Virus record (IMG/VR): IMGVR_UViG_3300008255_000003
Coordinates: 1-64,000 of that record
Direction: 5' to 3' (one strand)
Source of the DNA: a virus
Length of the DNA: 64,000 nt
Part shown: positions 832 to 51,006 of the stretch, in pieces
How the letters are laid out: each line of letters starts with the position of its first letter
Position numbering within the stretch: position 1 is the first letter of the stretch
The notes under the pieces: model-generated
Databases searched by the model: none
What the model saw: the letters and a program-made list of their open reading frames with translations, nothing else
What the model was told of the DNA's origin: nothing
Made by a program: the position numbers and the translations under genes

Positions 832-1200
832 ATGCTTAAGGGCTTATCGTTCCCAGTGAAGATGACTGCCAATGGCAGGCTTAAGACGACACAAGGCGCA
901 GATCGCATCGCGTCGTCTATGAGTCTTCTGTTCAGTCAGAATGGTGGTGACAGGCCCTATTCGCCAACCAATGGCGTCAACATCTTCAAGTATGTATTTG
1001 AAGATGTTGGACCTTTTGAGGCTGGCAATGTTAGGCGCGAGATCACCCTAGCGGTAGCGAGGCATGAGCCAAGGGCTACGCTAGTTAACGTTTTTACAGG
1101 TGTCAGGGTAGAGGATGGCGAAAGGGTGTTTGATGTCGTCCCAGTGTGGTCATTTGATGGTAAGATGTTCGCGGGATTATACAGTAGGAGCGCTAACTGA
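832..1200 (+). CDS. Baseplate wedge protein, gp25/GPW-like
   Basis: GLSFP...DRI..S..LL....GDRPY.P..G....Y.FE...I..A..RHEPR pattern, 122 aa, directly upstream of the baseplate J-like gene. Confidence 0.85.
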   Translation: MLKGLSFPVKMTANGRLKTTQGADRIASSMSLLFSQNGGDRPYSPTNGVNIFKYVFEDVGPFEAGNVRREITLAVARHEPRATLVNVFTGVRVEDGERVFDVVPVWSFDGKMFAGLYSRSAN

Positions 1201-3440
1201 TGACGACTAGACTCTTTGCGGGTAAGGATTATGACCAGCTTGTGAGCGCGCTTTTGGCGCGCTTAAGGCTTAGGTTTCCATCCTACGATCTTGATGCTGA
1301 CGATGAGCCCATGAGGCTGCTTATTGATGCCATGTCATTTGGTCTTGAGCAGTCAAACTTTTTCATGGATGCGTCTGGTGCCGAGCGCTTCTTAGACACT
1401 GCCCAGCGCCCGTCCAGTGTTGCTAGGATTGTGTCTGAGCTTGGTTACAATCCTCACGGTGCTACTGCGTGCTCTGGCACGTTATCAGTAGGGATCACCA
1501 CGGCCCTGCCCTACTCGATCACGCTTCCGAGCGGCCTAGAGTTCACGTCAGACCGTGGACTGCCTTACACGCTCACTGAGGCCGTCACATGGGTTGCTGG
1601 TGAGACTGGCTTTAAGTCTCTTTCGTTATCTCAATCAGCATTGAGGAGCAGGACTTTTACATCTGACGGCCTGAACCTTCAACGCCTATCACTTGGCGGA
1701 CTAAGTGAAGACGAGCGCATATCCTATCAATCATTGACAGTGACTGTTGATGGTCAGGTGTGGACTGAGCGCGACGCATTCCTCGATACTGACACCAATG
1801 TGTATCGCGTGGCCTACACTGCTCAGCCAGTCTACGTTGAGTTTGGTGACGGCGTGGTCGGGACTGTACCGCCCGAGAGTGCATCTATTCAGATCACTTT
1901 TGGAGTGACTCGTGGGGAGCTTGGCGAGCTTTCGACGCCAGGTAGGATCACTGGCCTGGCAACTCCCCTTGTAGTAGCAGGGAATCAGGTTGATCTTGTC
2001 ATTGATAGCTCTACTGGCGTCATGAGTGGAGGATCGGCACCTGAAGTCAAATCTAGGACGAAAGCCCTTGCCCCCGCCTTTAGGCATTCTGATGGCGCAG
2101 TTTGCACTGATGCCGACTTTGCGGCGGTTGCAGGCTCTTACAGTCATGGGCTTTATGGCACCGTGGCTTCGTCGAGAGCTGTGTTGGCCACTTCGATTGA
2201 GAACGATCCTAAGAGTGCGGTGCTCTTGAGCCAGATCGGCTTTACGCTTAGCGATGCGAGCACTGTGGTTGACAGTATCAAGTCTGACATCAGTGCATTG
2301 TCGCTGAGTCTTGGTGATGACATTGCAGACCTCGACGCCTTGCAGGTTAGTCTTGATGCTTTTGTGGGGTCGGCGCAGTCGCTCCAGACGAGTATCGAGT
2401 CTGTGCGCACAAGCACTTCGACAATGCAGACAGGCATCGGCACCATAGATCAGCGCGCTGCTGACATCCAGACAGCGGCAAGTCTTGCCCAGACAGATGT
2501 TGCATTGGCTATCGCATCTAAGAACAGCCTGCTGTCGTCGCTAGTGTCCATTGGTGGCGGCGCAGGTACGGATGAGCTTACCACCGTGACCTATGATGCT
2601 TTAACTGCGCTCATTGGAAGCATAAGCAGCCTGCTGGATTCTGTGAATGCTAAGCTTCAAGGTGGTGGAGTTATCCAGTCTGGAGCTTCTGATGTGAGAT
2701 CTCAGTTGAGTTCAATCAGAAACTCAATCTCACTAATCAGGACGGATCTTGATGGTATTGAGGACAATCAGGCTCAAGCCAGGCTGGATGTCGCGGCGCT
2801 TACGGCACTCTCCACCGTGTTGTCTGGTGAGGTTGCATCTAACGACGCGATCGCTCTTAGGCTAGAGTCTGAGTTTAATGATCCTTGGTCTACTGTGTCT
2901 TCCTATGCGCTTGAGCTTAGGAGTCACCTTGACAACGTGTTCACTGACGACTGTGGCCCCAACCTTGTCTCCGTCGTGATCCTAGCGTCTGATGAAGATG
3001 GTTATTATGTGGCTCCGTCCATAGGGTTGCAGCGCGCGCTTGAGGAGTATTTGAGCGAGCGTAAAGAACCTAGTGTGCGCGTTGCCGTTGTCGATGGCTC
3101 AAGCCTGCTCATTAGCCCTAGGATCACCGTGGCATTTAGGGTGGTTCAGGGTTATGACCCTGTTAAGGTGAAGAACCTAGCTCAAGCTGAGATCTTCTCA
3201 CTGCATCGAGGCAGGACCGCTGGCATAGGCCTAGCGCTTGACGAGTTGTATGACGCCGTAAGAGAAGTTGAGGGTCTTAGTCGTGCTAACATTGTGATTG
3301 ATGGCTTTGATGGTGCCACCTTTGCGCTCGCCAGCATAGACTCAGATGGTAATCTTCTGCTGGGTCGTAGTGAGGTCATCACTAGGCCCACCGTAATTTA
3401 TGTGCGTGTTTTGCCTGATGGCAGTCGAGAGGTGATCTGA
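1200..3440 (+). CDS. Baseplate wedge protein (baseplate J / T4 gp6-like) with long helical insertion
   Basis: KDYDQL, FLDTAQRPSSV..LGY, V.V.V.G..W, VEFGDGVVG.VPP, SGGS.PE, VCT..DF and C-terminal VSV.I...P...L...L.EYL.ERK motifs. Confidence 0.85.
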   Translation: MTTRLFAGKDYDQLVSALLARLRLRFPSYDLDADDEPMRLLIDAMSFGLEQSNFFMDASGAERFLDTAQRPSSVARIVSELGYNPHGATACSGTLSVGITTALPYSITLPSGLEFTSDRGLPYTLTEAVTWVAGETGFKSLSLSQSALRSRTFTSDGLNLQRLSLGGLSEDERISYQSLTVTVDGQVWTERDAFLDTDTNVYRVAYTAQPVYVEFGDGVVGTVPPESASIQITFGVTRGELGELSTPGRITGLATPLVVAGNQVDLVIDSSTGVMSGGSAPEVKSRTKALAPAFRHSDGAVCTDADFAAVAGSYSHGLYGTVASSRAVLATSIENDPKSAVLLSQIGFTLSDASTVVDSIKSDISALSLSLGDDIADLDALQVSLDAFVGSAQSLQTSIESVRTSTSTMQTGIGTIDQRAADIQTAASLAQTDVALAIASKNSLLSSLVSIGGGAGTDELTTVTYDALTALIGSISSLLDSVNAKLQGGGVIQSGASDVRSQLSSIRNSISLIRTDLDGIEDNQAQARLDVAALTALSTVLSGEVASNDAIALRLESEFNDPWSTVSSYALELRSHLDNVFTDDCGPNLVSVVILASDEDGYYVAPSIGLQRALEEYLSERKEPSVRVAVVDGSSLLISPRITVAFRVVQGYDPVKVKNLAQAEIFSLHRGRTAGIGLALDELYDAVREVEGLSRANIVIDGFDGATFALASIDSDGNLLLGRSEVITRPTVIYVRVLPDGSREVI

Positions 3441-6228: not shown

Positions 6229-6260
6229 CATGCAACCGTTGCATGGTTAGGAGATAGAAA

Positions 6261-6805: not shown

Positions 6806-9700
6806 ATGACAGTCTTAATCGACACAGCCATATCTAATGCAAAGGGCAAGGCGCGTTGGCTTGAGCCTTACACAAGCGAAGCTCTTAACCGTCAGATGTA
6901 TAACCAAGGTAACTGGGGTATCAGGGAGGGGTTTAACTTGGTGCCGACCTCTGGTTTGAATGTGAAGCTCCAGTATGACCCTTCTACATCAAGATCAGTT
7001 GCCAACGTCCCTGACAGACTCAAGCAGTTATGCTTTGCATTTGTTGAGGATGCCGAACCTACGTTCGACCTCACGGCTTATGCTGGGCAGCGAGTCTACA
7101 TCCTTCTCTACGTCAACTATACGATCGGTGCCGCGTCAGCGTATTCTTATCGCGTAGTCAATGCCGCTGAGCTTGTTAACTCGTGGGTCCAAAGCGCCAT
7201 TATGCTTGGTTCTGTTCGCGTTCCTGGCGTAGGTGCTATCGCTCAGAAAGACATCGATCTTGGGCAAACGCTTTACATCGGCGCGGGCTCAAACGGGTCT
7301 AAGGAATGGGTCAAGTGCAACACTAACCCAGAGTTTGATCGTGGCCTTGCTGGTTATGAGCTTACGGGTTCAAGTGTGGCTGGTGCCTTCGAGCTTCGTT
7401 CCTTGGTGAGTCCTGGCTATATCGGCGCTGACGCGCTAGGTCTTGGGGAGTCAACGGGGGCATCAACACTTGGGATGCGCAGCGGCATCAAAGTTGTCGT
7501 TCCAAGCTCCAAGGCTGGTGATAAGATCCTTGTAAGGTTCTGGGCTAAGTCTTCACTCGTCTCAGGGGCTCAGCTTAACCTTAAGATTGATGGTGGTGCG
7601 CTCTTTAACTCAGTGATGCTCGCTGCCGATCAGGCGTCATTTGATAGCTATGGCGTCTTAGTGACAGTGCCTGCCGATGCTAGATCTGTTGACGTCGATC
7701 TTGAGGTTGTGTTTCCTGCCGCAGGTAATACTGGCGCTTTTGTTGTGGATAGCTTTGAAGTCCTCAAGCTTAGGCGTTCTGTTCACGACGGTAACGCGCC
7801 TTTGCTTGTTGGTGCTCGCGAGTTCTCAGTTGGAGCCGCCACCAATAACAAACCGAGCATCATCAAGGCCAATGCTGGTAGCATGTCATTGAAGGCTGGC
7901 AACTCAAGCCTTGCACTTGAGCTTACTGAGACTGGCTACACTGAGCCGCCTAACGCACAAAGCGCGATGCGCCTTCTAGGCAGGGCTTACAATACGACTG
8001 AGGCTCTTAACAACGCATTCCCAGAGCATTGCTTCGGCGGGATTGTGACGCGAGCTAGCGCAACCACGGTAGACGTGTCTGGCGATTACATCAGGGCCGT
8101 CAACTCTGCATCTAAGCCTGATGAATCCATGTGGTTTGATGCGACTGGCGTTAATGGCTTGGCTGTACCCACGACTGGCGATGGTGTGTTGATCGTCTAT
8201 GAGCCTGAAGAGGCTGTTGAGGCTAACCGATACAAAGCCCTTGATCTTGGTGTGACCGCCTTCATCCTTGGTCGATATACGCTTCTCGCTTACGTCTACT
8301 ATGACCCTATCGCCACAGACATCACGCAGGTGATCGATCTGAGGTATAGCGCTGAGCGTGAGCATAGGAAAACTAGGCTGGTGGTGGGGTCTGCACCTGA
8401 CTCGTCAAGCAATATGTCATTAGCTGGTGCGCTCAAGCTGTGTGAGATTGCTTCAACTCGCAACTACGCTACGCAGTTTGAGATCATCATCAGGGGCGCG
8501 CTCACGCTCACTGAGCAGGTGGTTATCCCATCCAACGTCACCATCAGGGGTGAGACTACGGGCGCATCGAAGGCTATCGTTACGCTGCCGGATCTAAGCC
8601 CGGACCCTGTGTTTGATCTCAAGGATGCTGCTGGCGTTACGATTGAAGATGTCACCTTCCAGCCTGCTACGGCGACCGGGGTGTCTGTTATTGCGTTTGG
8701 AAGCTCCACAGGCTCACCATCGAACCTTATGATGCGCCGATGTAACTTTGAGGAGAACGGCTCTAACGCCTTTAGCTCAATCCTCAAGCTGGATGGTTCT
8801 ATCACTGATGGTTTATTTGGCGATCTTAGGCTCAATGGCTGTCACTTCCATCATCGTGACAAGGGTATCGTCTTTGGCAGTTCATTCACTGGCCCTAATA
8901 ACGTTGAGATCACCAACTGTCGATTCACTCCAGATCTTGAGGGCGCGCCCTGTGTCCCGCTTGAGATCAGGGCCAACCCTGGAACCAACTCACTCAAGGC
9001 AAACCGAGTACTCATTGAGGGTTGCCGTTTTGGCAGTTGTATCAGCGGGCTGGTGTTGGTTGGCCCAGTGGAGATTAGAGGGTGCGTCTTAAGCTGCCCC
9101 GTCTACTACACAACGGGCTCCATTCTGACACAGCGACTCACGATCACTGACACCGTGTTCGACTTCAACCACTTTACCACCGCGTTCCCGCTATATGCGA
9201 TCAGCATTGGCGGCACGTCTACGCTCAATCTTAAGATCAGCTCTGTTGAGATTAAGTGGACGGCTGTGTCGGTTAGGGGTACGTCCACACTCAGGGCTAT
9301 CAATATCAACATGGGATCGTCTGTACTAATGCGCGTGTCGATCAATGACACCGACATTGACTTCGATCCTGGCAACGTTGGATTAACGTCAACATCTGTT
9401 GGCATCTACATCAACAATGCGGCGGTCACTAGCTCGATCATCCTGTCAGGCTTGCGACTTAGGAGCTTCGAGTCTGCTGGTAATACGCTGACCACCGGCA
9501 TTGCGCTTGTGTCTGCCAGTAACGCGCTGATAAGCGGCCTTCACTGCTCCGGCTGCGCCAACCAGAAGGCTGTCACGTTTGACGCATCATCGGATGACAA
9601 CGTGCTCAATAGTGCTTTTGTGAGGCAGGCTGGAGCGGGCATTGGTTATACTAATGGCGGCGCAGGTAACGTCACAACTAACGTCAGCGTCTTCACTTAA
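6806..9700 (+). CDS. Tail fibre / tailspike with carbohydrate-binding-like module and C-terminal right-handed beta-helix
   Basis: NPEFD..L.GY...V.VRFWAKS jelly-roll-like segment; SNVTIRGE, VTIEDVTF, ITNCRF, IEGCRF, ITDTVF beta-helix rungs. Confidence 0.7.
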   Translation: MTVLIDTAISNAKGKARWLEPYTSEALNRQMYNQGNWGIREGFNLVPTSGLNVKLQYDPSTSRSVANVPDRLKQLCFAFVEDAEPTFDLTAYAGQRVYILLYVNYTIGAASAYSYRVVNAAELVNSWVQSAIMLGSVRVPGVGAIAQKDIDLGQTLYIGAGSNGSKEWVKCNTNPEFDRGLAGYELTGSSVAGAFELRSLVSPGYIGADALGLGESTGASTLGMRSGIKVVVPSSKAGDKILVRFWAKSSLVSGAQLNLKIDGGALFNSVMLAADQASFDSYGVLVTVPADARSVDVDLEVVFPAAGNTGAFVVDSFEVLKLRRSVHDGNAPLLVGAREFSVGAATNNKPSIIKANAGSMSLKAGNSSLALELTETGYTEPPNAQSAMRLLGRAYNTTEALNNAFPEHCFGGIVTRASATTVDVSGDYIRAVNSASKPDESMWFDATGVNGLAVPTTGDGVLIVYEPEEAVEANRYKALDLGVTAFILGRYTLLAYVYYDPIATDITQVIDLRYSAEREHRKTRLVVGSAPDSSSNMSLAGALKLCEIASTRNYATQFEIIIRGALTLTEQVVIPSNVTIRGETTGASKAIVTLPDLSPDPVFDLKDAAGVTIEDVTFQPATATGVSVIAFGSSTGSPSNLMMRRCNFEENGSNAFSSILKLDGSITDGLFGDLRLNGCHFHHRDKGIVFGSSFTGPNNVEITNCRFTPDLEGAPCVPLEIRANPGTNSLKANRVLIEGCRFGSCISGLVLVGPVEIRGCVLSCPVYYTTGSILTQRLTITDTVFDFNHFTTAFPLYAISIGGTSTLNLKISSVEIKWTAVSVRGTSTLRAININMGSSVLMRVSINDTDIDFDPGNVGLTSTSVGIYINNAAVTSSIILSGLRLRSFESAGNTLTTGIALVSASNALISGLHCSGCANQKAVTFDASSDDNVLNSAFVRQAGAGIGYTNGGAGNVTTNVSVFT

Positions 9701-9800
9701 GGTTGGCTTTGGTTCTTAAAAGATGGTGACTGCCGGGGTCGTTCTGATAGTTTAAGGGACATGCAACGGTTGCATGTCCCTTAAACTTATGAGGTGTAGG

Positions 9801-10538
9801 ATGGCTATTTTAGATCTGGCCGAAGCTTATGTTGAAAACTGGTCTGGCGTCACTAATGCCAAGCATTATCGAGGCGGATCTGAGCTTGAGCAAGCGGCTA
9901 AAGATGTCTGTGATTGGCTGCAAAGGATAGATGTTGAGGTGCTTTCTGGCTCCGATCTTCGTGACTACGCTGATGCCTTCCATAGGGTTAGCATATTCCT
10001 AAAGAGGGCAGTGGAATCCAAGAGGTCACTCGTGTTCGATCGCGTGTACCGCCTAGGCCAACTTAAGACCGCTCTTGAGGTTTACGCTACAACTTATGAG
10101 GGTGTTGACAGCCGTGACCAAAGGTCGGTTGAGAATCGTATAAAAACATTGGTGCTCAGGATTGATGAGATCCTATCCTGGGACATTAAGAAAGAGATGG
10201 ATCGTCAGGTGCATATAGTGTCCGAAGCCTCCAGGGGCTTTAGTGTCATGGCTGGCAATATCCTTGGCGGTAGGTTTTCAGCCGTGCCCAAGGATGGCAG
10301 GGACACATGCCTTAATGTCCTCAATGTGGTGACAACGATTAGCCTTGCATCTAAGGATCTTATCAGCGACATTCTGCCAGACCTTATCAGCAGTGTGACT
10401 AACGGCACTGTTAAGGCTGAGGAGTTGAAGGCGGCTGATCGCTGGCTCCAAACCTACAACCCTGGTAGGTCTATTGAGATTGAGACATCGAATGTTAAGT
10501 ATGAGATCAAGCGATTCATCTCATCATTTAGACCATAA
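9801..10538 (+). CDS. ESY-leader protein, helical family A
   Basis: Start moved to ATG 9801 (GAGGTG RBS; the ORF-track start lies inside the dyad); MAILDLAEAYVE. Confidence 0.75.
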   Translation: MAILDLAEAYVENWSGVTNAKHYRGGSELEQAAKDVCDWLQRIDVEVLSGSDLRDYADAFHRVSIFLKRAVESKRSLVFDRVYRLGQLKTALEVYATTYEGVDSRDQRSVENRIKTLVLRIDEILSWDIKKEMDRQVHIVSEASRGFSVMAGNILGGRFSAVPKDGRDTCLNVLNVVTTISLASKDLISDILPDLISSVTNGTVKAEELKAADRWLQTYNPGRSIEIETSNVKYEIKRFISSFRP

Positions 10539-10555
10539 TCAATAGGAGGTTTAGG

Positions 10556-11239
10556 ATGTCAATTTTAGCTCTGATCGAGTCTTACTTTGTGGAGAGTGTC
10601 ACGGTCGGTTCAAACTTGCGGGGCTCCAAAGAGCTTGAGCAAGCGCTTGAGGATTACCAGAGGGCCGTTGCCCCATATGGTAAGAGCAGGCGCACCGTCT
10701 ATATAAATAACCGTGGCCTTACCGACATCTCTAATACTATGGGCAGGCTGTCAGTGTTCTTTAGGCGGGTGATAGACTCTTACAAGTCTAGGACTGATAT
10801 GGAGTTGAAGACCTATGACCAGATCATGGCTTTTGTATACTCCGACGCCACAATCCAGGGCGCCAAGGTATCAGCGTCCACCATGTCAAAGTACAAGGCA
10901 TTCTTAGGTCAGCTTGAGCTGGAGGCTTACGGGCTGGACAAGACAGCTAAGAAGCTCGCCTTAGCAGTGTCTAAAGGTGGTGAAGTTGAAGCTCGTTCCA
11001 TTGATGGTGAGCCTGCTGCTATGGAGCGCCTGGTAGACTTGGTGATGCCGCCTAGCATCGGGCATGAGCTTGGTATTGATCTTCAGGATCTTTACATCTC
11101 GGCAAAGGATGGTAGTGCGCGTGACGTTATCTTCTCAGGGCTTAGAGATCTGGAGAGCGAAGCCTTTGGCTTCTCTAAGCTCATGTCTGACGTCAGGAAC
11201 GCAGGATCTTCACTTACCATCTATCGCGCACCGCTTTGA
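10556..11239 (+). CDS. ESY-leader protein, helical family A
   Basis: GGAGG RBS; MSILALIESYFVE; LRGSKELEQA matches YRGGSELEQA of the previous gene. Confidence 0.8.
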   Translation: MSILALIESYFVESVTVGSNLRGSKELEQALEDYQRAVAPYGKSRRTVYINNRGLTDISNTMGRLSVFFRRVIDSYKSRTDMELKTYDQIMAFVYSDATIQGAKVSASTMSKYKAFLGQLELEAYGLDKTAKKLALAVSKGGEVEARSIDGEPAAMERLVDLVMPPSIGHELGIDLQDLYISAKDGSARDVIFSGLRDLESEAFGFSKLMSDVRNAGSSLTIYRAPL

Positions 11240-11246
11240 GGTCAAT

Positions 11247-12020
11247 ATGTCTACGCTCAGCATAGTCGAGTCTTATGTTAATCAGTATGTTGTCACCGAG
11301 GGCGTTGGCGACAACATACGCAAGGTTCTGTCCACTTATAGGGGTGGTGCTGAGCTTATCAGGCTTAAGGGTGCTCTAGTCACCATGTTTGAGGCTGCTG
11401 AAAAGCGATCGCCTAGTGCGTGGCGAAGTAAGGCTTCGTTGGCCATAAGCGGCCAGGATGCTCGCGAGTTTGGTGATCTGGCGTACCAATACGCGATCAT
11501 CTTAGAACGCGTCATCCAGTACAAGCGCACCATCTATCAGGAGGAGCTTGCCACCCTTGAGGTAATAAAGAATGGCCTCGATAAGTACGGCTCCCTACCC
11601 CCTGCGCCTGGCAGCGTTGACTTCACCAAACACATCGCAAGGATGGCATCAAGGTGGGATCTCAATGCTGTTGCCGATCTAGCTGCTGACTGGATTGACA
11701 GTCTCTACCAGGGGGCGGGTGAGTTTAAGGCCATAGCTAAACAGACCTCACGAGGTGGGACGATTCAAGTATCCCTATCGAGTGACTTTCCGGCGCTGCT
11801 TGATGATATCAATTATGCCTTGATCTTGAGTATTTTACCTAGAGGTGCTGATAAGGCAGCTAGGGACGTGGCAGCACTCTACCGCAAGAAACTCAAGGCT
11901 ATGCCAGAAGATATTGAAAAGCTTGCCAAAATAGAAAATGACGCCACCCTTGGCATGGGTGAGAAGATGGGCAACTTTAAGCCTGAATCGCTGGGCTGGT
12001 TGATTAGCTGGACGCCTTGA
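11247..12020 (+). CDS. ESY-leader protein, helical family A
   Basis: GAGG RBS then ATG 11247; MSTLSIVESYV...VTE; YRGGAEL. Confidence 0.75.
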   Translation: MSTLSIVESYVNQYVVTEGVGDNIRKVLSTYRGGAELIRLKGALVTMFEAAEKRSPSAWRSKASLAISGQDAREFGDLAYQYAIILERVIQYKRTIYQEELATLEVIKNGLDKYGSLPPAPGSVDFTKHIARMASRWDLNAVADLAADWIDSLYQGAGEFKAIAKQTSRGGTIQVSLSSDFPALLDDINYALILSILPRGADKAARDVAALYRKKLKAMPEDIEKLAKIENDATLGMGEKMGNFKPESLGWLISWTP

Positions 12021-12040
12021 CGTTTTTTTAAAAATACCCC

Positions 12041-12069
12041 TTGCCAATAAGCTCATCGGCCTCTAATGT
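12041..12069 (+). promoter_or_regulatory. Sigma70-like promoter upstream of candidate ncRNA
   Basis: TTGCCA-N17-TAATGT. Confidence 0.5.
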
Positions 12070-12075
12070 CTTTTT

Positions 12076-12625
12076 CAGAGCCAAGGAGCATTGGCTTGGA
12101 CATCTGGAAGGTTTCAAGCACCATCATTCTTTGCGTGATGGTGTGAAAGTAGGCGTCCAAGCCATTAAGATGCTGCGGGTAAAAGTGAAGGCGTGTCACG
12201 GCATTATATGCCAATATAGCACGACTGGACCATTACCAAGCCTCTTTGACCGTGGTAGGGTGAAAACACCACCAGCCCAATCCCTTCCTTGGGCTGGTTA
12301 AGAATCAAGGGGTTTACCTTTATTGATTCTGAACAACGCTAAGCCTGGCGTTAGCAAAGTTCGCACCGTTACCACTTTAGCCACTGTTGCTAGGCTTTAA
12401 GGTCGCATGGCAGTCATAAGTGGAGTTATGGTGTGAAACCCCCCTCGCCTAACACCCGTAGTAAGACTCCTTACACGGCATGGGTGTTAGGCGAAAACAA
12501 CACAGCACTGATCACGCTGTGCAAATTCAGGATCGGTGGTTGAGTTAGGCAGTGAAGCCGGGTCCATAGAGCGTGACGTTACTCTATGCGTCTGGTGGAG
12601 TCCGATGATTCTCTTGGCCTGTCCT
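12076..12625 (+). ncRNA. Candidate large structured non-coding RNA (~550 nt)
   Basis: No convincing ORF or RBS. Perfect stems: 12092-12101/12155-12164, 12119-12126/12136-12143, 12271-12280/12289-12298, 12301-12308/12323-12330, 12445-12457/12482-12494, 12501-12506/12516-12521, 12565-12571/12582-12588. The 5' and 3' ends pair. Bounded by a promoter and a terminator. Confidence 0.55.
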
Positions 12626-12628
12626 TGT

Positions 12629-12669
12629 AAAAATGCCCTACTGGCTTAAACTGCCAGTAGGGCATTTTT
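12629..12669 (+). terminator. Intrinsic terminator (bidirectional geometry)
   Basis: 17-bp perfect arms AAAAATGCCCTACTGGC / GCCAGTAGGGCATTTTT. Confidence 0.85.
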
Positions 12670-12684
12670 GCATTTGGAGGTGTT

Positions 12685-13464
12685 ATGAGTTTAATCAGAG
12701 TGAGGTCTAGGGATCTTCAAAACCCAGCCTCAATGATCTTGGTGGCCTTGGATTCCGTTACTGGCGAGCCTTTAGAGGAGCTGGAGCCTATCAGGCTTCA
12801 ATACTACCCTGAGACAATAAACTACTCTCGCGGTCAGATCGGATGGCAAGAGCAGGCTATACCAGGCCTATCACACGGCATCTTTGGTTGGACGGGTAAC
12901 GGTAGCCCAACACTGTCTTTCGAGGTGGACTTCACGTCTGACCAAGACCCCGCATGGGCGGTTAAGTCACCCCTACAGTCGGGTAAGACGGCATCACATA
13001 GTCACGTCTTTAATGTGGATATTAACGCAGCAATGGCATGGTTCGTGGCCTGCACCAACCCACGTTACGATACAGACGCTAACGCTTCCAGTCCTGTAAA
13101 CCCGCCACCTATCATTCAGATCATTCCAGAGTACATCCCAAACGATACGAGGGCGCGAGACATAGCTGCTGCCTTTGGTGGTCGCGGTGATAGTGTGATC
13201 TTAGATAACGTCGCTGTCTTTGAAGGTGCTAATCCTACCAACTTCAGGGGTGTAACCTTATCCCATCAGACGCGCGACTTTTATGGTGTCCTTACGAGCC
13301 TCAGTGAGGTTTACGAGTCGTTCTTTGTGTCTGGAGCGCCAAGGACTGGCAAGGTGTCACTGACCTTTAGTGAGACTATTCAGTTAGGCGGTGTGATCCT
13401 TCCTCATAGCAGGACAGATAATGCTAAGCTTGCGGCGGCTTATCAAATACGGGCAAGGTCTTAA
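12685..13464 (+). CDS. Contractile tail tube-initiator / CIS tube-like protein
   Basis: LQYYPETI...W.E..IPG......WT.....TLSF...F and G.L.SL...Y..F...G.PR...V.L.F.E pattern; GGAGG RBS. Confidence 0.7.
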   Translation: MSLIRVRSRDLQNPASMILVALDSVTGEPLEELEPIRLQYYPETINYSRGQIGWQEQAIPGLSHGIFGWTGNGSPTLSFEVDFTSDQDPAWAVKSPLQSGKTASHSHVFNVDINAAMAWFVACTNPRYDTDANASSPVNPPPIIQIIPEYIPNDTRARDIAAAFGGRGDSVILDNVAVFEGANPTNFRGVTLSHQTRDFYGVLTSLSEVYESFFVSGAPRTGKVSLTFSETIQLGGVILPHSRTDNAKLAAAYQIRARS

Positions 13465-43539: not shown

Positions 43540-44390
43540 ATTGACGTTAAACTACTCGGCCCAAACCTGCAACGGTTGCATCCCTACTTCACAGCCTCAC
43601 GACATCCTAGACACTTTCCGAGCACAGCTTACGGCGGCACTCACTCACTAACCTCTAAATCCCTTATATCATCCCTTATTAAATCCAACCAAATCAACTC
43701 CAGAATCAACTTTTACCTCACACCATAACTTTCCCTACTCCATAGAATGCCACCCATCCGACATTCACACTTCAAACATCCCCAAGACCACATCAAATGA
43801 TCATCACTTTCAACCCCTATAAAAACACCCACTCTTCATAGACCCCCTCAACCAACCCCCCTTCATGGTGCATAACCACCCCATACATCCTATGGTGCAA
43901 TACATCGTATAGAACATCATCCCTTACCCATACTGACACCGTAGTGAGTTACGTCTGCACCATAACGAGTGACGATTACACCATAAGGCCTCTATGGTGC
44001 ATGATGACGGGAAAAGACATTTCGCTCCGCACCCCCACCCCCCTTTGAAAAAACTCAGGGGGGAGCTGCTCTGTTTTTTTTCCCAAGCACCATTGGGGGA
44101 TTTTTCAAAAGGGGCAGGGTGTGTCCCTATGGTGGAGGCATAGAGTCCTATGGTGGAGGCATAGAGTCCTATGGTGGAGGCATAGAGTCCTATGGTGGAG
44201 GCATAGAGTCCTATGGTGGCGGGAGGGGGTCGCGCGAGGGGAGTGACCTGTGGTGGTGGGGGTATGAGTGTACGGGGAGTGTGCGGGGGTCAATGTCAGA
44301 CGTGCAACCGTTGCATGTTGGAATGATGGGGGTCGGTGTTAGAATGGGGTTCGTGGCGAGATGTAAACAACGCACCATAGAGAGGTATGG
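43540..44390. other. Origin-like non-coding region at a transcription divergence point
   Basis: C/A-rich + strand to ~44045 switching to G/T-rich after ~44110; inverted repeat at the switch; 11 exact TATGGTG/CACCATA copies; dyads at 43566 and 44301. Confidence 0.55.
44126..44219 (+). repeat. 21-bp tandem repeat CCTATGGTGGAGGCATAGAGT x4.5
   Basis: Identical units at 44126, 44147, 44168, 44189 and a 10-bp partial at 44210; no spacers. Confidence 0.97.
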
Positions 44391-49341: not shown

Positions 49342-50265
49342 ATGACCGAAGTTATGCCAGTCCTGACGTTCGATGAGGTGAAAGAGACTTTAAGGCGCAT
49401 GGGGATCATCTTTCTAATCAATGAGGTCACGAAAGAGATCACGCTTGAGCTTACGGACACCAAGCTGTCATACGGATCTAATGGCGCCCTTGGTATAGAC
49501 TGCCCCTACTATGGCGCAGTTTATACCGTCGAACACAAGCCAGCCCTGGTATCTCAACTGCGTCGGGTTCAGCTCGTGCAGGAGGCGATAATTAACCGTG
49601 AGAATGTCAACTCCGACAGGATCAAGGAAGTCTTAGGGCACAGGGGCATCCACTTCGTCAAGGTGTTGGGCGGCTACGAGTCTGACGATCTTAAGATCGA
49701 CATGACGCGCTCGGTGCCTTTCGTGCAGATTGGTAATGACAGGCCGGAGGCGATCTTCACCGTGGATGTTTTCGAGCGAATGGTTGACGCTTGGCTTGCA
49801 GCTAAGGTGAGCAAGGTCGCTGACAGGCCGCTTAAGACCTACGATGAGGGTGAGATGATGGCCAGGATTCAAGCTCTCTTTGGGCCGCTTGTCGCGCAGT
49901 CTAAAGAGATGGGGTGCCCAGTGACGACGGCCCTTTATCTAAGTCAAGACACCTACTCCGTGTTCACCGATAGGGTTTCAGCCTTTGCCAAGTATCTAGG
50001 TGAAAGTAATGTCCTTAATATTGACCCTGGCAGTATCGAGGATTTCGCATCGGAGCACGTTCATATCATCATGGGGGCTGCCTTCATTGCTGGGCTGGAG
50101 CGGCTTTGTAGTATCGTCGGCGTCCAGCTTGATGATGAGTTCAAGTTGGACGCCTGCGAGGGTATGGAGCAGAACATTCTCGCGCTTTTCTCTGATGTCA
50201 TGGCTAAGAAGTGTCGCGATGCCGATGGGGCTGAGGGGGCTGATGCGCAGCTACCCCAAGCATAA
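49342..50265 (+). CDS. Hypothetical protein
   Basis: AGGTG RBS after dyad; 307 aa. Confidence 0.7.
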   Translation: MTEVMPVLTFDEVKETLRRMGIIFLINEVTKEITLELTDTKLSYGSNGALGIDCPYYGAVYTVEHKPALVSQLRRVQLVQEAIINRENVNSDRIKEVLGHRGIHFVKVLGGYESDDLKIDMTRSVPFVQIGNDRPEAIFTVDVFERMVDAWLAAKVSKVADRPLKTYDEGEMMARIQALFGPLVAQSKEMGCPVTTALYLSQDTYSVFTDRVSAFAKYLGESNVLNIDPGSIEDFASEHVHIIMGAAFIAGLERLCSIVGVQLDDEFKLDACEGMEQNILALFSDVMAKKCRDADGAEGADAQLPQA

Positions 50266-50355
50266 GCCTTTGACATCATGACGTTGGATGGCGGATAGCA
50301 CGTCATCGCTTGTTAAACAACCCGGCGTGTGCCGGATTTTCTTTGGAGGTGAGCT

Positions 50356-51006
50356 GTGAAGGGTAGACGCTTTGATCATTCTCTTGTGGATGATCTTATC
50401 AACGAAAGGGTCAGTCATGAGTATGTCATTGAGCATGGTGACAGGCTCTTCGTGGACTTTGAAGCCCTGGCCAGACTTGTAGGGCATTATGTTCCAGGCC
50501 TTGAGGTTGGCGAGGGCTTTATCCAGCGTCGGGAATGGAAGCGCGGCACTATCAGTGGTGATGAGGCTAAGGCGGTCATCTTCTACGATGCCTCTTACTT
50601 TGAAGACCTATCACCGTCTGCGCTTGAGTTCGGAATAGCTTACTGGGACTTTAAAGACGCCAACATGCTCTTCGGTCGCACCTGGCGTTGGGAGCCTCGT
50701 GACCCCATTGGTGCTCTCTTTAGGCGCTCGCATAGGATCTCTAAGAAGTGTGGATATGGCTCAATCCACTATGGGCGAAAAGGCATTGCGTCTTATCGGC
50801 CAGACTTCCCAAATAGTGAGATGGAAGGTCCGACCGATCGCAACCTCGATCACCTTGATAGCATCCTGCCTAGTGGCGCCGTCCACCTCATGAAGGCGCT
50901 CGGAAGGTTTAGGCCTAACGACTTATTTGTGAGCATCCTCAACGGAAGAAACCACCGTGCAGAAGATGATCTTTACATCTTTGAAAGCTGGGACTGGGAC
51001 AAATGA
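50356..51006 (+). CDS. Hypothetical protein
   Basis: GGAGGTG RBS, GTG start. Confidence 0.65.
   Translation: MKGRRFDHSLVDDLINERVSHEYVIEHGDRLFVDFEALARLVGHYVPGLEVGEGFIQRREWKRGTISGDEAKAVIFYDASYFEDLSPSALEFGIAYWDFKDANMLFGRTWRWEPRDPIGALFRRSHRISKKCGYGSIHYGRKGIASYRPDFPNSEMEGPTDRNLDHLDSILPSGAVHLMKALGRFRPNDLFVSILNGRNHRAEDDLYIFESWDWDK

Follow-up and report, generated by a model that had tools for sequence, protein, structure and literature searches.

The stretch of DNA analysed here (hereafter, the window) comprises positions 1 to 64,000 of an IMG/VR phage record of 129,896 bp that carries direct terminal repeats. The phage is very novel, with no Pfam or PHROG family for most of its large ORFs, and about 94% of its genome is coding. 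From position 1 to 18.7 kb, all genes lie on the plus strand. Two ORFs near the start of this region match baseplate-wedge PHROGs (832-1200, E 1.6e-14; 1200-3440, E 1.4e-32), and a longer one (6806-9700) encodes a fibre- or spike-like protein of 964 aa with a beta-helix domain. The latter is followed by three tandem genes (p1 to p3), by a gap that is the longest stretch without an ORF in the genome, and by a conserved gene whose product resembles baseplate tube initiators of the Afp7, Pvc and T4 class (Table 1).

The product of this conserved gene has eight homologues, the closest of which (P0002, 63% identity) is encoded on a 17.4-kb Logan contig. Its AF2 model is modest (pLDDT 59, pTM 0.56); when this model was used in Foldseek searches, the best matches were all tube-initiator-type baseplate chains of contractile injection systems or phages, led by 6j0n_b (E 1.8e-8) and including chains from AFP, cyanophage A-1(L) and T4 (5iv5). 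Judged by its gene content, the gap neighbourhood is a predicted contractile-tail baseplate module, and the original prediction, which had proposed a large structured RNA within the virion gene region, was correct about the setting: the baseplate-wedge PHROG matches, the beta-helix gene and the tube-initiator-like gene all lie around the gap. We take the phage to be myovirus-like, with the gap sitting in its baseplate/tail operon.

The proteins encoded by p1, p2 and p3 are distant tandem paralogues, with pairwise blastp E values of about 1e-7 over the N-terminal 80-125 residues. The naive ORF of p3 (11064-12020) overlaps the preceding gene by 175 nt; we place the true start at 11247, because the shared N-terminal leader described below begins there and a GAGG lies upstream. 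No Pfam, PHROG or PADLOC family, PDB sequence match or usable ESM Atlas hit was found for the cassette proteins. In searches with p3 and the cassette proteins, a word-based comparison with 5.8 billion proteins returned the phage's own copy only, and an exhaustive HMMER search of 1.84 billion representatives returned that copy and one weak hit. A profile of the three paralogues matched the three themselves and nothing else.

Two relatives that encode homologues of the tube-initiator-like protein contain neither the gap nor the paralogues; in both, the homologue comes immediately after the structural gene that precedes it. In one (L003), a 178-aa gene and a 992-aa gene precede a 271-aa homologue, and the 992-aa protein is itself homologous to the beta-helix protein of the window (E 6e-59, 27% identity); in the other (L004), a 183-aa gene directly precedes a 286-aa homologue. 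Since both relatives lack the segment, we consider 9701-12684 a lineage-specific insertion. It is edged by a hairpin on the left (9749-9787) and by the terminator on the right (12626-12672). The beta-helix gene comes before the tube-initiator gene in the window (6806-9700) and in L003 (2960-5938) and is not so placed in L004 (5392-6807); its variable presence at the junction suggests that this is a hot spot of gain and loss in the group.

T4-type phages have hyperplastic regions with mobile cassettes bracketed by stem-loops (PeSL), in which copies of a promoter plus stem-loop are repeated. The segment described here resembles these cassettes in that orphan genes are placed within a conserved structural module, are missing from relatives and have a strong stem-loop at each edge. 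It differs from them in that the bracketing hairpins are unrelated in sequence, and only the left one carries the palindrome found throughout the phage.

Table 1. Features at and around the ORF-free gap (positions in the window; P, pairing probability).
Feature	Position	Strand	Basis or remark
Lineage-specific insertion (accessory cassette) of three paralogous orphan genes and an ORF-free tail	9701-12684	+	Missing from L003 and L004
Left-edge hairpin of the cassette (18-19 bp), formed around the palindrome TGCAAC-S-GTTGCA	9749-9787	n/a	-27.4 kcal/mol, z -8.2
Paralogue p1, 245 aa, orphan	9801-10538	+	blastp
Paralogue p2, 227 aa, orphan	10556-11239	+	GGAGG 5' of ATG
Paralogue p3, 257 aa, orphan	11247-12020	+	Start by shared leader, GAGG upstream
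ORF-free gap, 664 nt	12021-12684	+	Six-frame stops, codon usage, gap ranking
Promoter-like site, 8/12 consensus positions	12041-12070	+	Chance level
5' arm of the terminal closing helix	12076-12085	+	Context-dependent
Hairpin domain A, 73 nt	12092-12164	+	Contains a perfect 8-bp stem (12119-12143) and the first 11-mer copy
Hairpin H2, perfect 10-bp stem, 8-nt pyrimidine-rich loop	12271-12298	n/a	Fold statistics
Hairpin H3, perfect 8-bp stem	12301-12330	n/a	Context-dependent, P 0.12-0.82
Hairpin domain B, 78 nt	12360-12437	+	Basal helix contains the second 11-mer copy and requires G.U pairs
Hairpin H4, perfect stem of 13 bp (15 bp when extended) that encloses a stem of 5 bp	12445-12494	n/a	Fold statistics
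Mutually exclusive helix pair	12500-12522, or 12506-12513 with 12531-12538	+	Pairing probabilities
3' arm of the terminal closing helix	12613-12621	+	Context-dependent
Intrinsic terminator	12626-12672	n/a	Loop of 7 nt on a GC-rich stem, followed by T5
Conserved gene after the gap, product similar to baseplate tube initiators of the Afp7, Pvc and T4 class	12685-13464	+	Homologues, AF2, Foldseek

The gap is non-coding and contains four significant hairpin domains

All six reading frames of the gap are closed, each by 7-16 stops in a mixture of TAA, TAG and TGA, and the codon-usage log-odds peak at -0.05 to -0.28, compared with 0.19 ± 0.08 for in-frame genes. An 86-codon TTG frame at 12041-12301 likewise scores as non-coding by its codon usage. 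Recoding of stop codons is ruled out, as every frame holds all three kinds of stop and no alternative code would open the gap. The 664-nt stretch is non-coding, in agreement with the initial view that it holds no credible ORF.

Two possible origins of the gap by duplication were rejected. A pseudogene, namely a decayed fourth paralogue, finds no support in a tblastn search of the gap with the paralogues (best E 0.06), in a tblastx comparison of the gap with the remaining genome and with the relatives (E at least 0.18) or in the codon log-odds, which are non-coding in all frames; very old decay of a paralogue into the gap is conceivable. A tandem duplication of about 295 nt within the gap, suggested by two collinear direct repeats, has a score (69) that was reached by 54 of 417 native adjacent window pairs. 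A possible small coding feature was noted inside hairpin domain A, where a perfect AAGGAG and a 7-nt spacer precede a 16-codon micro-ORF that starts from TTG and encodes a hydrophobic peptide (12083-12146). Its TGA stop falls within the first copy of the 11-mer, and the arrangement could be due to chance.

Single hairpins were compared with 200 dinucleotide shuffles, and pairing probabilities were calculated in four contexts, comprising the segments 12075-12621, 12021-12684 and 11900-12800 and a construct in which the gap is joined to the whole p3 mRNA. Four hairpin domains (A, B, H2 and H4) are each significant against shuffles and form with P of at least 0.94 in all four contexts. Three of the four are strand-symmetric, the minus strand folding as well as the plus strand. 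Domain A reaches -35.5 kcal/mol on the plus strand (z -5.6) and -30.7 kcal/mol on the minus strand (z -5.3), with P of at least 0.95 in all contexts; H2 has z values of -5.2 and -4.5, respectively (P at least 0.96); and H4, at -29.5 kcal/mol, has z values of -6.4 and -5.3 (P 0.95). Domain B is the sole domain specific to the plus strand, where it folds at -29.4 kcal/mol with z -3.2 (1/200 shuffles; P 0.94 in all contexts), as against -20.3 kcal/mol with z -1.0 (29/200 shuffles) on the minus strand. A further hairpin at 12565-12588 equals its shuffles (z 0.0).

The perfect stems of 8, 10, 8, 13 and 17 bp that had originally been reported were recovered at their positions, and the 11-mer direct repeat at 12138 and 12428 is present and exact. 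In each of the two long domains, A and B, a helix has the 11-mer as its 3' strand. The hairpins of the gap have no sequence in common among them, and the loops of the predicted folds include no GNRA or UNCG tetraloops.

Folding against shuffled controls was a check named in the original prediction, and the core of the gap beats its shuffles (z -6.83 on the plus strand with 100 shuffles, z -5.81 on the minus strand). For comparison, 14 native 547-nt windows from the same genome have a mean z of -0.99 ± 1.45 and a minimum of -5.1. When the raw MFE of the core is set against native windows, z is only -1.9, or -2.65 after adjustment for GC content, and 3 of 118 windows are equally well folded. Neither GU content and fraction nor unpaired-A enrichment, which serve as indicators of strand and RNA, differs between the gap and native windows.

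Two other places in the genome were noted in this comparison. The native window at about 50,000-50,547, with z -5.1 against its own shuffles, may hold a further structured element. The ORF-poor segment 72,601-73,082, which lies outside the window, contains the most stable 150-nt minus-strand window (-73.4 kcal/mol) and may be a structured element as well.

With five perfect-stem hairpins in 664 nt, the gap has the maximum among segments of this length in the genome, where the mean is 0.7. Its density of 7.5 hairpins per kb exceeds the 4.6 per kb of other intergenic DNA by a factor of only 1.6, and coding DNA has 0.78 per kb; the other long gaps of the phage (at least 180 nt) contain 0-1 hairpins each. 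The modest excess over other intergenic DNA is consistent with the view that the gap is non-functional debris in a hyperplastic spot, left by lost cassette genes or as recombination scars, in which only the last terminator matters. Intergenic hairpins are normal in this phage and those of the gap lack mutual sequence similarity; moreover, the gap comes after three diverged paralogues in tandem, is close to them in size (664 nt versus genes of 684-774 nt) and belongs to an insertion that is missing from relatives. We nevertheless regard this origin as doubtful, since the searches above give no sign that the gap was once coding, a genome this densely coding would rarely carry 660 nt of junk, and no hairpin of the gap bears the intergenic palindrome of the phage, which would be expected in remnants of native spacers.

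Proposed transcript ends and comparison with large structured RNAs

The proposed RNA had been given its own promoter, TTGCCA-N17-TAATGT. A promoter above chance expectation, as looked for in an independent sRNA or ncRNA gene, was not found here: 117 plus-strand sites in the genome match the consensus equally well or better (0.9 per kb), three matches of 8/12 quality lie inside the gap itself, and a consensus promoter scan did not call the site at 12041-12070.

The 3' end of the proposal fared better. The 17-bp perfect stem at the end of the stretch, followed by a T-run, is a canonical and very strong terminator, with two arms of 20 nt each (12626-12645 and 12653-12672) that are 95% complementary and fold at -38 kcal/mol (z -9.6). 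Its stem-loop, its U-run and its location 3' of a gene on the same strand are those of a Rho-independent terminator, and an A5 run opposite the T5 tail makes it bidirectional in form. A consensus scan missed this terminator, probably because an A/T extension absorbs the T-run, and listed no terminator-like sites on the plus strand between 12020 and 12620. The GGAGG and the ATG start of the baseplate gene lie 4-13 nt 3' of the terminator. A weak promoter-like sequence at chance level (TTGTAA-N16-TAAACT, 8/12) lies within the terminator hairpin; if used, it would start transcription in the 3' arm and so escape termination just 5' of the baseplate gene.

Stable RNAs typically have their 5' and 3' ends paired with each other, and the terminal closing helix is the main argument for a discrete, closed molecule. 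The complementary segments on which the original fold was built are all present, yet the pairings drawn from them proved largely fragile. The terminal helix has a P of 0.99 only if the RNA is cut exactly at 12075 and 12621, with 0.46, 0.00 and 0.00 in the three longer contexts. One of the two proposed pseudoknots (12341/12392) forms with P 0.00-0.03, as does the long-range pairing 12226/12561, and the other (12507/12531) is no pseudoknot but a nested helix that forms as an alternative to hairpin 12500-12522. What proves robust is a row of local hairpins, independent of one another, that ends in the terminator and has no multi-stem junctions. Since the closing helix is not robust, such a beads-on-a-string arrangement fits better than an ornate fold.

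Comparison with Rfam gave no match at the gathering threshold in the whole window and, at E values up to 10 in 11900-12800, only junk matches of miRNA and sRNA families to the terminator hairpin. The 64-kb window has neither a tRNA nor a tmRNA, and no match to Rfam intron families, in line with the reported lack of tmRNA and intron signatures. No reverse transcriptase (RVT_1) was found in the whole phage genome, so the gap does not qualify as the RNA of a retron, a DGR or a group II intron.

ROOL RNAs have a conserved complex architecture, with multistem junctions and pseudoknots backed by covariation (PMC5737381). The gap shares with ROOL (about 581 nt) and GOLLD its size (~550 nt here), its location in a phage, its non-coding nature and its many stems. 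It is unlike them in several respects: it matches neither covariance model even at E values up to 10, it has no robust helix closing a junction, and the proposed pseudoknots fail. Moreover, ROOL and GOLLD are frequently close to tRNAs, whereas the window has none and only the phage context is shared, and they are widespread families, whereas the gap is a singleton. We therefore reject membership in ROOL or GOLLD, given the missing covariance-model match, the unsupported junction and pseudoknot architecture and the absence of tRNAs nearby.

Searches for related sequences were made at several levels. The gap has no blastn match among INPHARED phages, gives only chance matches of 17-28 nt in the whole records of two relatives (G001 and G002) and has no look-alike in the other windows of the scan. 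Pattern scans of IMG/VR returned 11 matches to a double 10-mer pattern, all confined to the motif, and none to the H4 stem, while a GTDB scan with the H2 stem returned 27 matches to the hairpin alone. Single-protein scans of IMG/VR with both flanking genes and a profile scan of GTDB genomes gave nothing. An identical copy of the region, with zero differences, is present in a cold-spring metagenome (X2); it provides independent evidence that the sequence is real and is silent on covariation and selection. Among the four DNA runs compared, X2 is identical and the other three contain only fragments of the flanking genes, so that variation within the gap is nil. An RNA run from the same sample as X2 (X15) contains next to none of the stretch, and the runs listed with the stretch are all non-RNA.

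These results bear on the proposal of a discrete, independently transcribed and structured ncRNA of about 545-600 nt that would extend from the promoter-like site to the terminator end at 12672 and act in trans. Several observations are in keeping with it: the z of the core lies outside the range of the 14 native windows; the 5' end predicted from the -10 element pairs with the segment just before the terminator when the RNA is cut there; domain B is specific to the plus strand through its G.U pairs; and an exact 11-mer recurs in helices of both long domains, with no match to a known family. They are opposed by the chance level of the promoter, by the loss of the closing helix in longer contexts, by the proposed pseudoknots and long-range pair, which have a P near 0 or amount to an alternative helix, by the native-like GU and unpaired-A values and the lack of GNRA or UNCG tetraloops, and by the fact that no homologues turned up in the collections searched. 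On balance, we consider such an RNA unlikely. If it exists, it would join the very few large structured RNAs of phages (GOLLD, ROOL) as an orphan and would tie such an RNA to a mobile cassette of genes within a tail module. Its boldest form, a ~550-nt plus-strand RNA with paired ends that represents a new class, moves as a module with the three orphan paralogues and acts in trans on the host or on assembly, is in our judgement quite improbable.

The original idea of a new large phage RNA has thus survived in part. Its non-coding nature, its significant hairpins, its strong terminator and the lack of an Rfam family all stand; the promoter does not exceed chance, neither the closing helix nor the pseudoknots prove robust, and three of the four domains are strand-symmetric. 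None of the outcomes that the prediction had itself named as speaking against it was obtained outright. The gap is a real, somewhat unusual, orphan feature.

A structured 3' tail as the favoured reading

We favour, with a probability of roughly two in five, the reading that the gap is the untranslated, structured 3' tail of the three-gene accessory cassette, present on the plus strand and stabilising and insulating in cis. We infer its transcription, its strand and any function from sequence and setting. The gap would be transcribed on the plus strand together with p3, as no terminator separates the p3 stop from the gap and all neighbours between 1 and 18.7 kb have the same orientation, and the transcript would end at the intrinsic terminator. 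The RNA is predicted to fold as four independent, very stable local hairpin domains and not as one closed, ornate architecture. Such a tail may protect the cassette transcript against 3' exonucleases and may act as an insulator between the cassette and the conserved baseplate gene, whose start lies 13 nt past the terminator. Processing could, in addition, release a stable 3'-derived RNA of roughly 550-650 nt.

A tail on the plus strand is supported by the plus-only significance of domain B and by the core z, which is slightly lower on the plus strand than on the minus strand. It is further supported by the distribution of hairpins in the phage, where hairpins between a stop codon and the next RBS are the rule, as reflected in the densities of intergenic and coding DNA given above. 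What speaks against this reading is that a 3' UTR of 650 nt with four hairpins far exceeds the needs of 3' protection. As the other long gaps of the phage hold at most one hairpin, the present one is unusual and may have a more specific role.

Two kinds of known RNA element provide a frame for the 3'-tail reading. RNAs derived from 3' UTRs, such as the enterobacterial CpxQ and SroC, share the intrinsic terminator of the upstream mRNA and are typically 50-300 nt long. Like these, the gap lies directly past a stop codon, in the same orientation and with no intervening terminator, and ends in a canonical terminator; unlike these, it is much longer (650 nt) and has four large hairpin domains. Polycistronic phage mRNAs, on the other hand, contain intercistronic hairpins or RNase III processing sites, for example the R sites of T7. 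The gap hairpins resemble them in being stable and in lying between co-directional genes, as do about 40 hairpins with a conserved core in this phage. They differ in that they lack the conserved core, occur four in a row and are not each adjacent to a gene.

As the minus strand folds equally well in three of the four domains, these could also be palindromes that act at the DNA level, either as binding sites for phage proteins or as a locus of recombination or secondary replication. In favour of such an element, the stems of H2, H4 and domain A form Watson-Crick palindromes, perfect or nearly so, that are equal in stability on both strands. The gap also contains TATGGTG (12427-12433) and CATAGAG (12565-12571), which are the halves of a 21-bp iteron-like repeat found in the putative origin region at 44.1 kb (44125-44219). 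These heptamers are 130 nt apart, and chance alone would place each of them in the gap about 0.08 times; the resemblance was noted post hoc and is probably fortuitous. Beyond the one pair of 11-mers, the gap has no repeated binding-site motif; there is no turn of the GC skew here, and domain B needs its G.U pairs. A DNA-level element is accordingly very unlikely in our estimate.

A palindrome and an N-terminal leader found throughout the phage

Two sequence features of the phage, both statistically clear, extend well beyond the cassette and could reveal how a 130-kb phage organises its gene expression and the loading of its virion. The first, TGCAAC-S-GTTGCA, is a palindrome of 13 bp that frequently lengthens to ACATGCAAC-S-GTTGCATGT and of which there are 40 copies in 130 kb (examples in the window lie at 6231, 9762, 14018, 17205, 18730, 23626, 32205, 35015, 49302 and 60066). 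The gap itself contains none. Most copies lie where only a few bases separate a stop codon from the next RBS. The outer extensions of the stem differ in length (6 to 23 bp), and T-runs come after some of the copies. That the core is conserved while the arms vary suggests a signal specific in sequence, for example one for protein binding or processing, or the core of a terminator. A pattern scan of IMG/VR with the palindrome returned 13 single-copy matches, no contig with multiple copies and no kin of the phage.

The second feature is an N-terminal leader, M-x-x-L-x-L-[IVA]-E-[SA]-Y, that is common to at least eight ORFs, with starts at 11, 9801, 10556, 11247, 14756, 15567, 17239, 38220 and 46094. 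Its carriers include the three cassette paralogues as well as members of a paralogue array at 38-47 kb. It may resemble the capsid-targeting or propeptide leaders of T4-type phages, which are cleaved after Glu.
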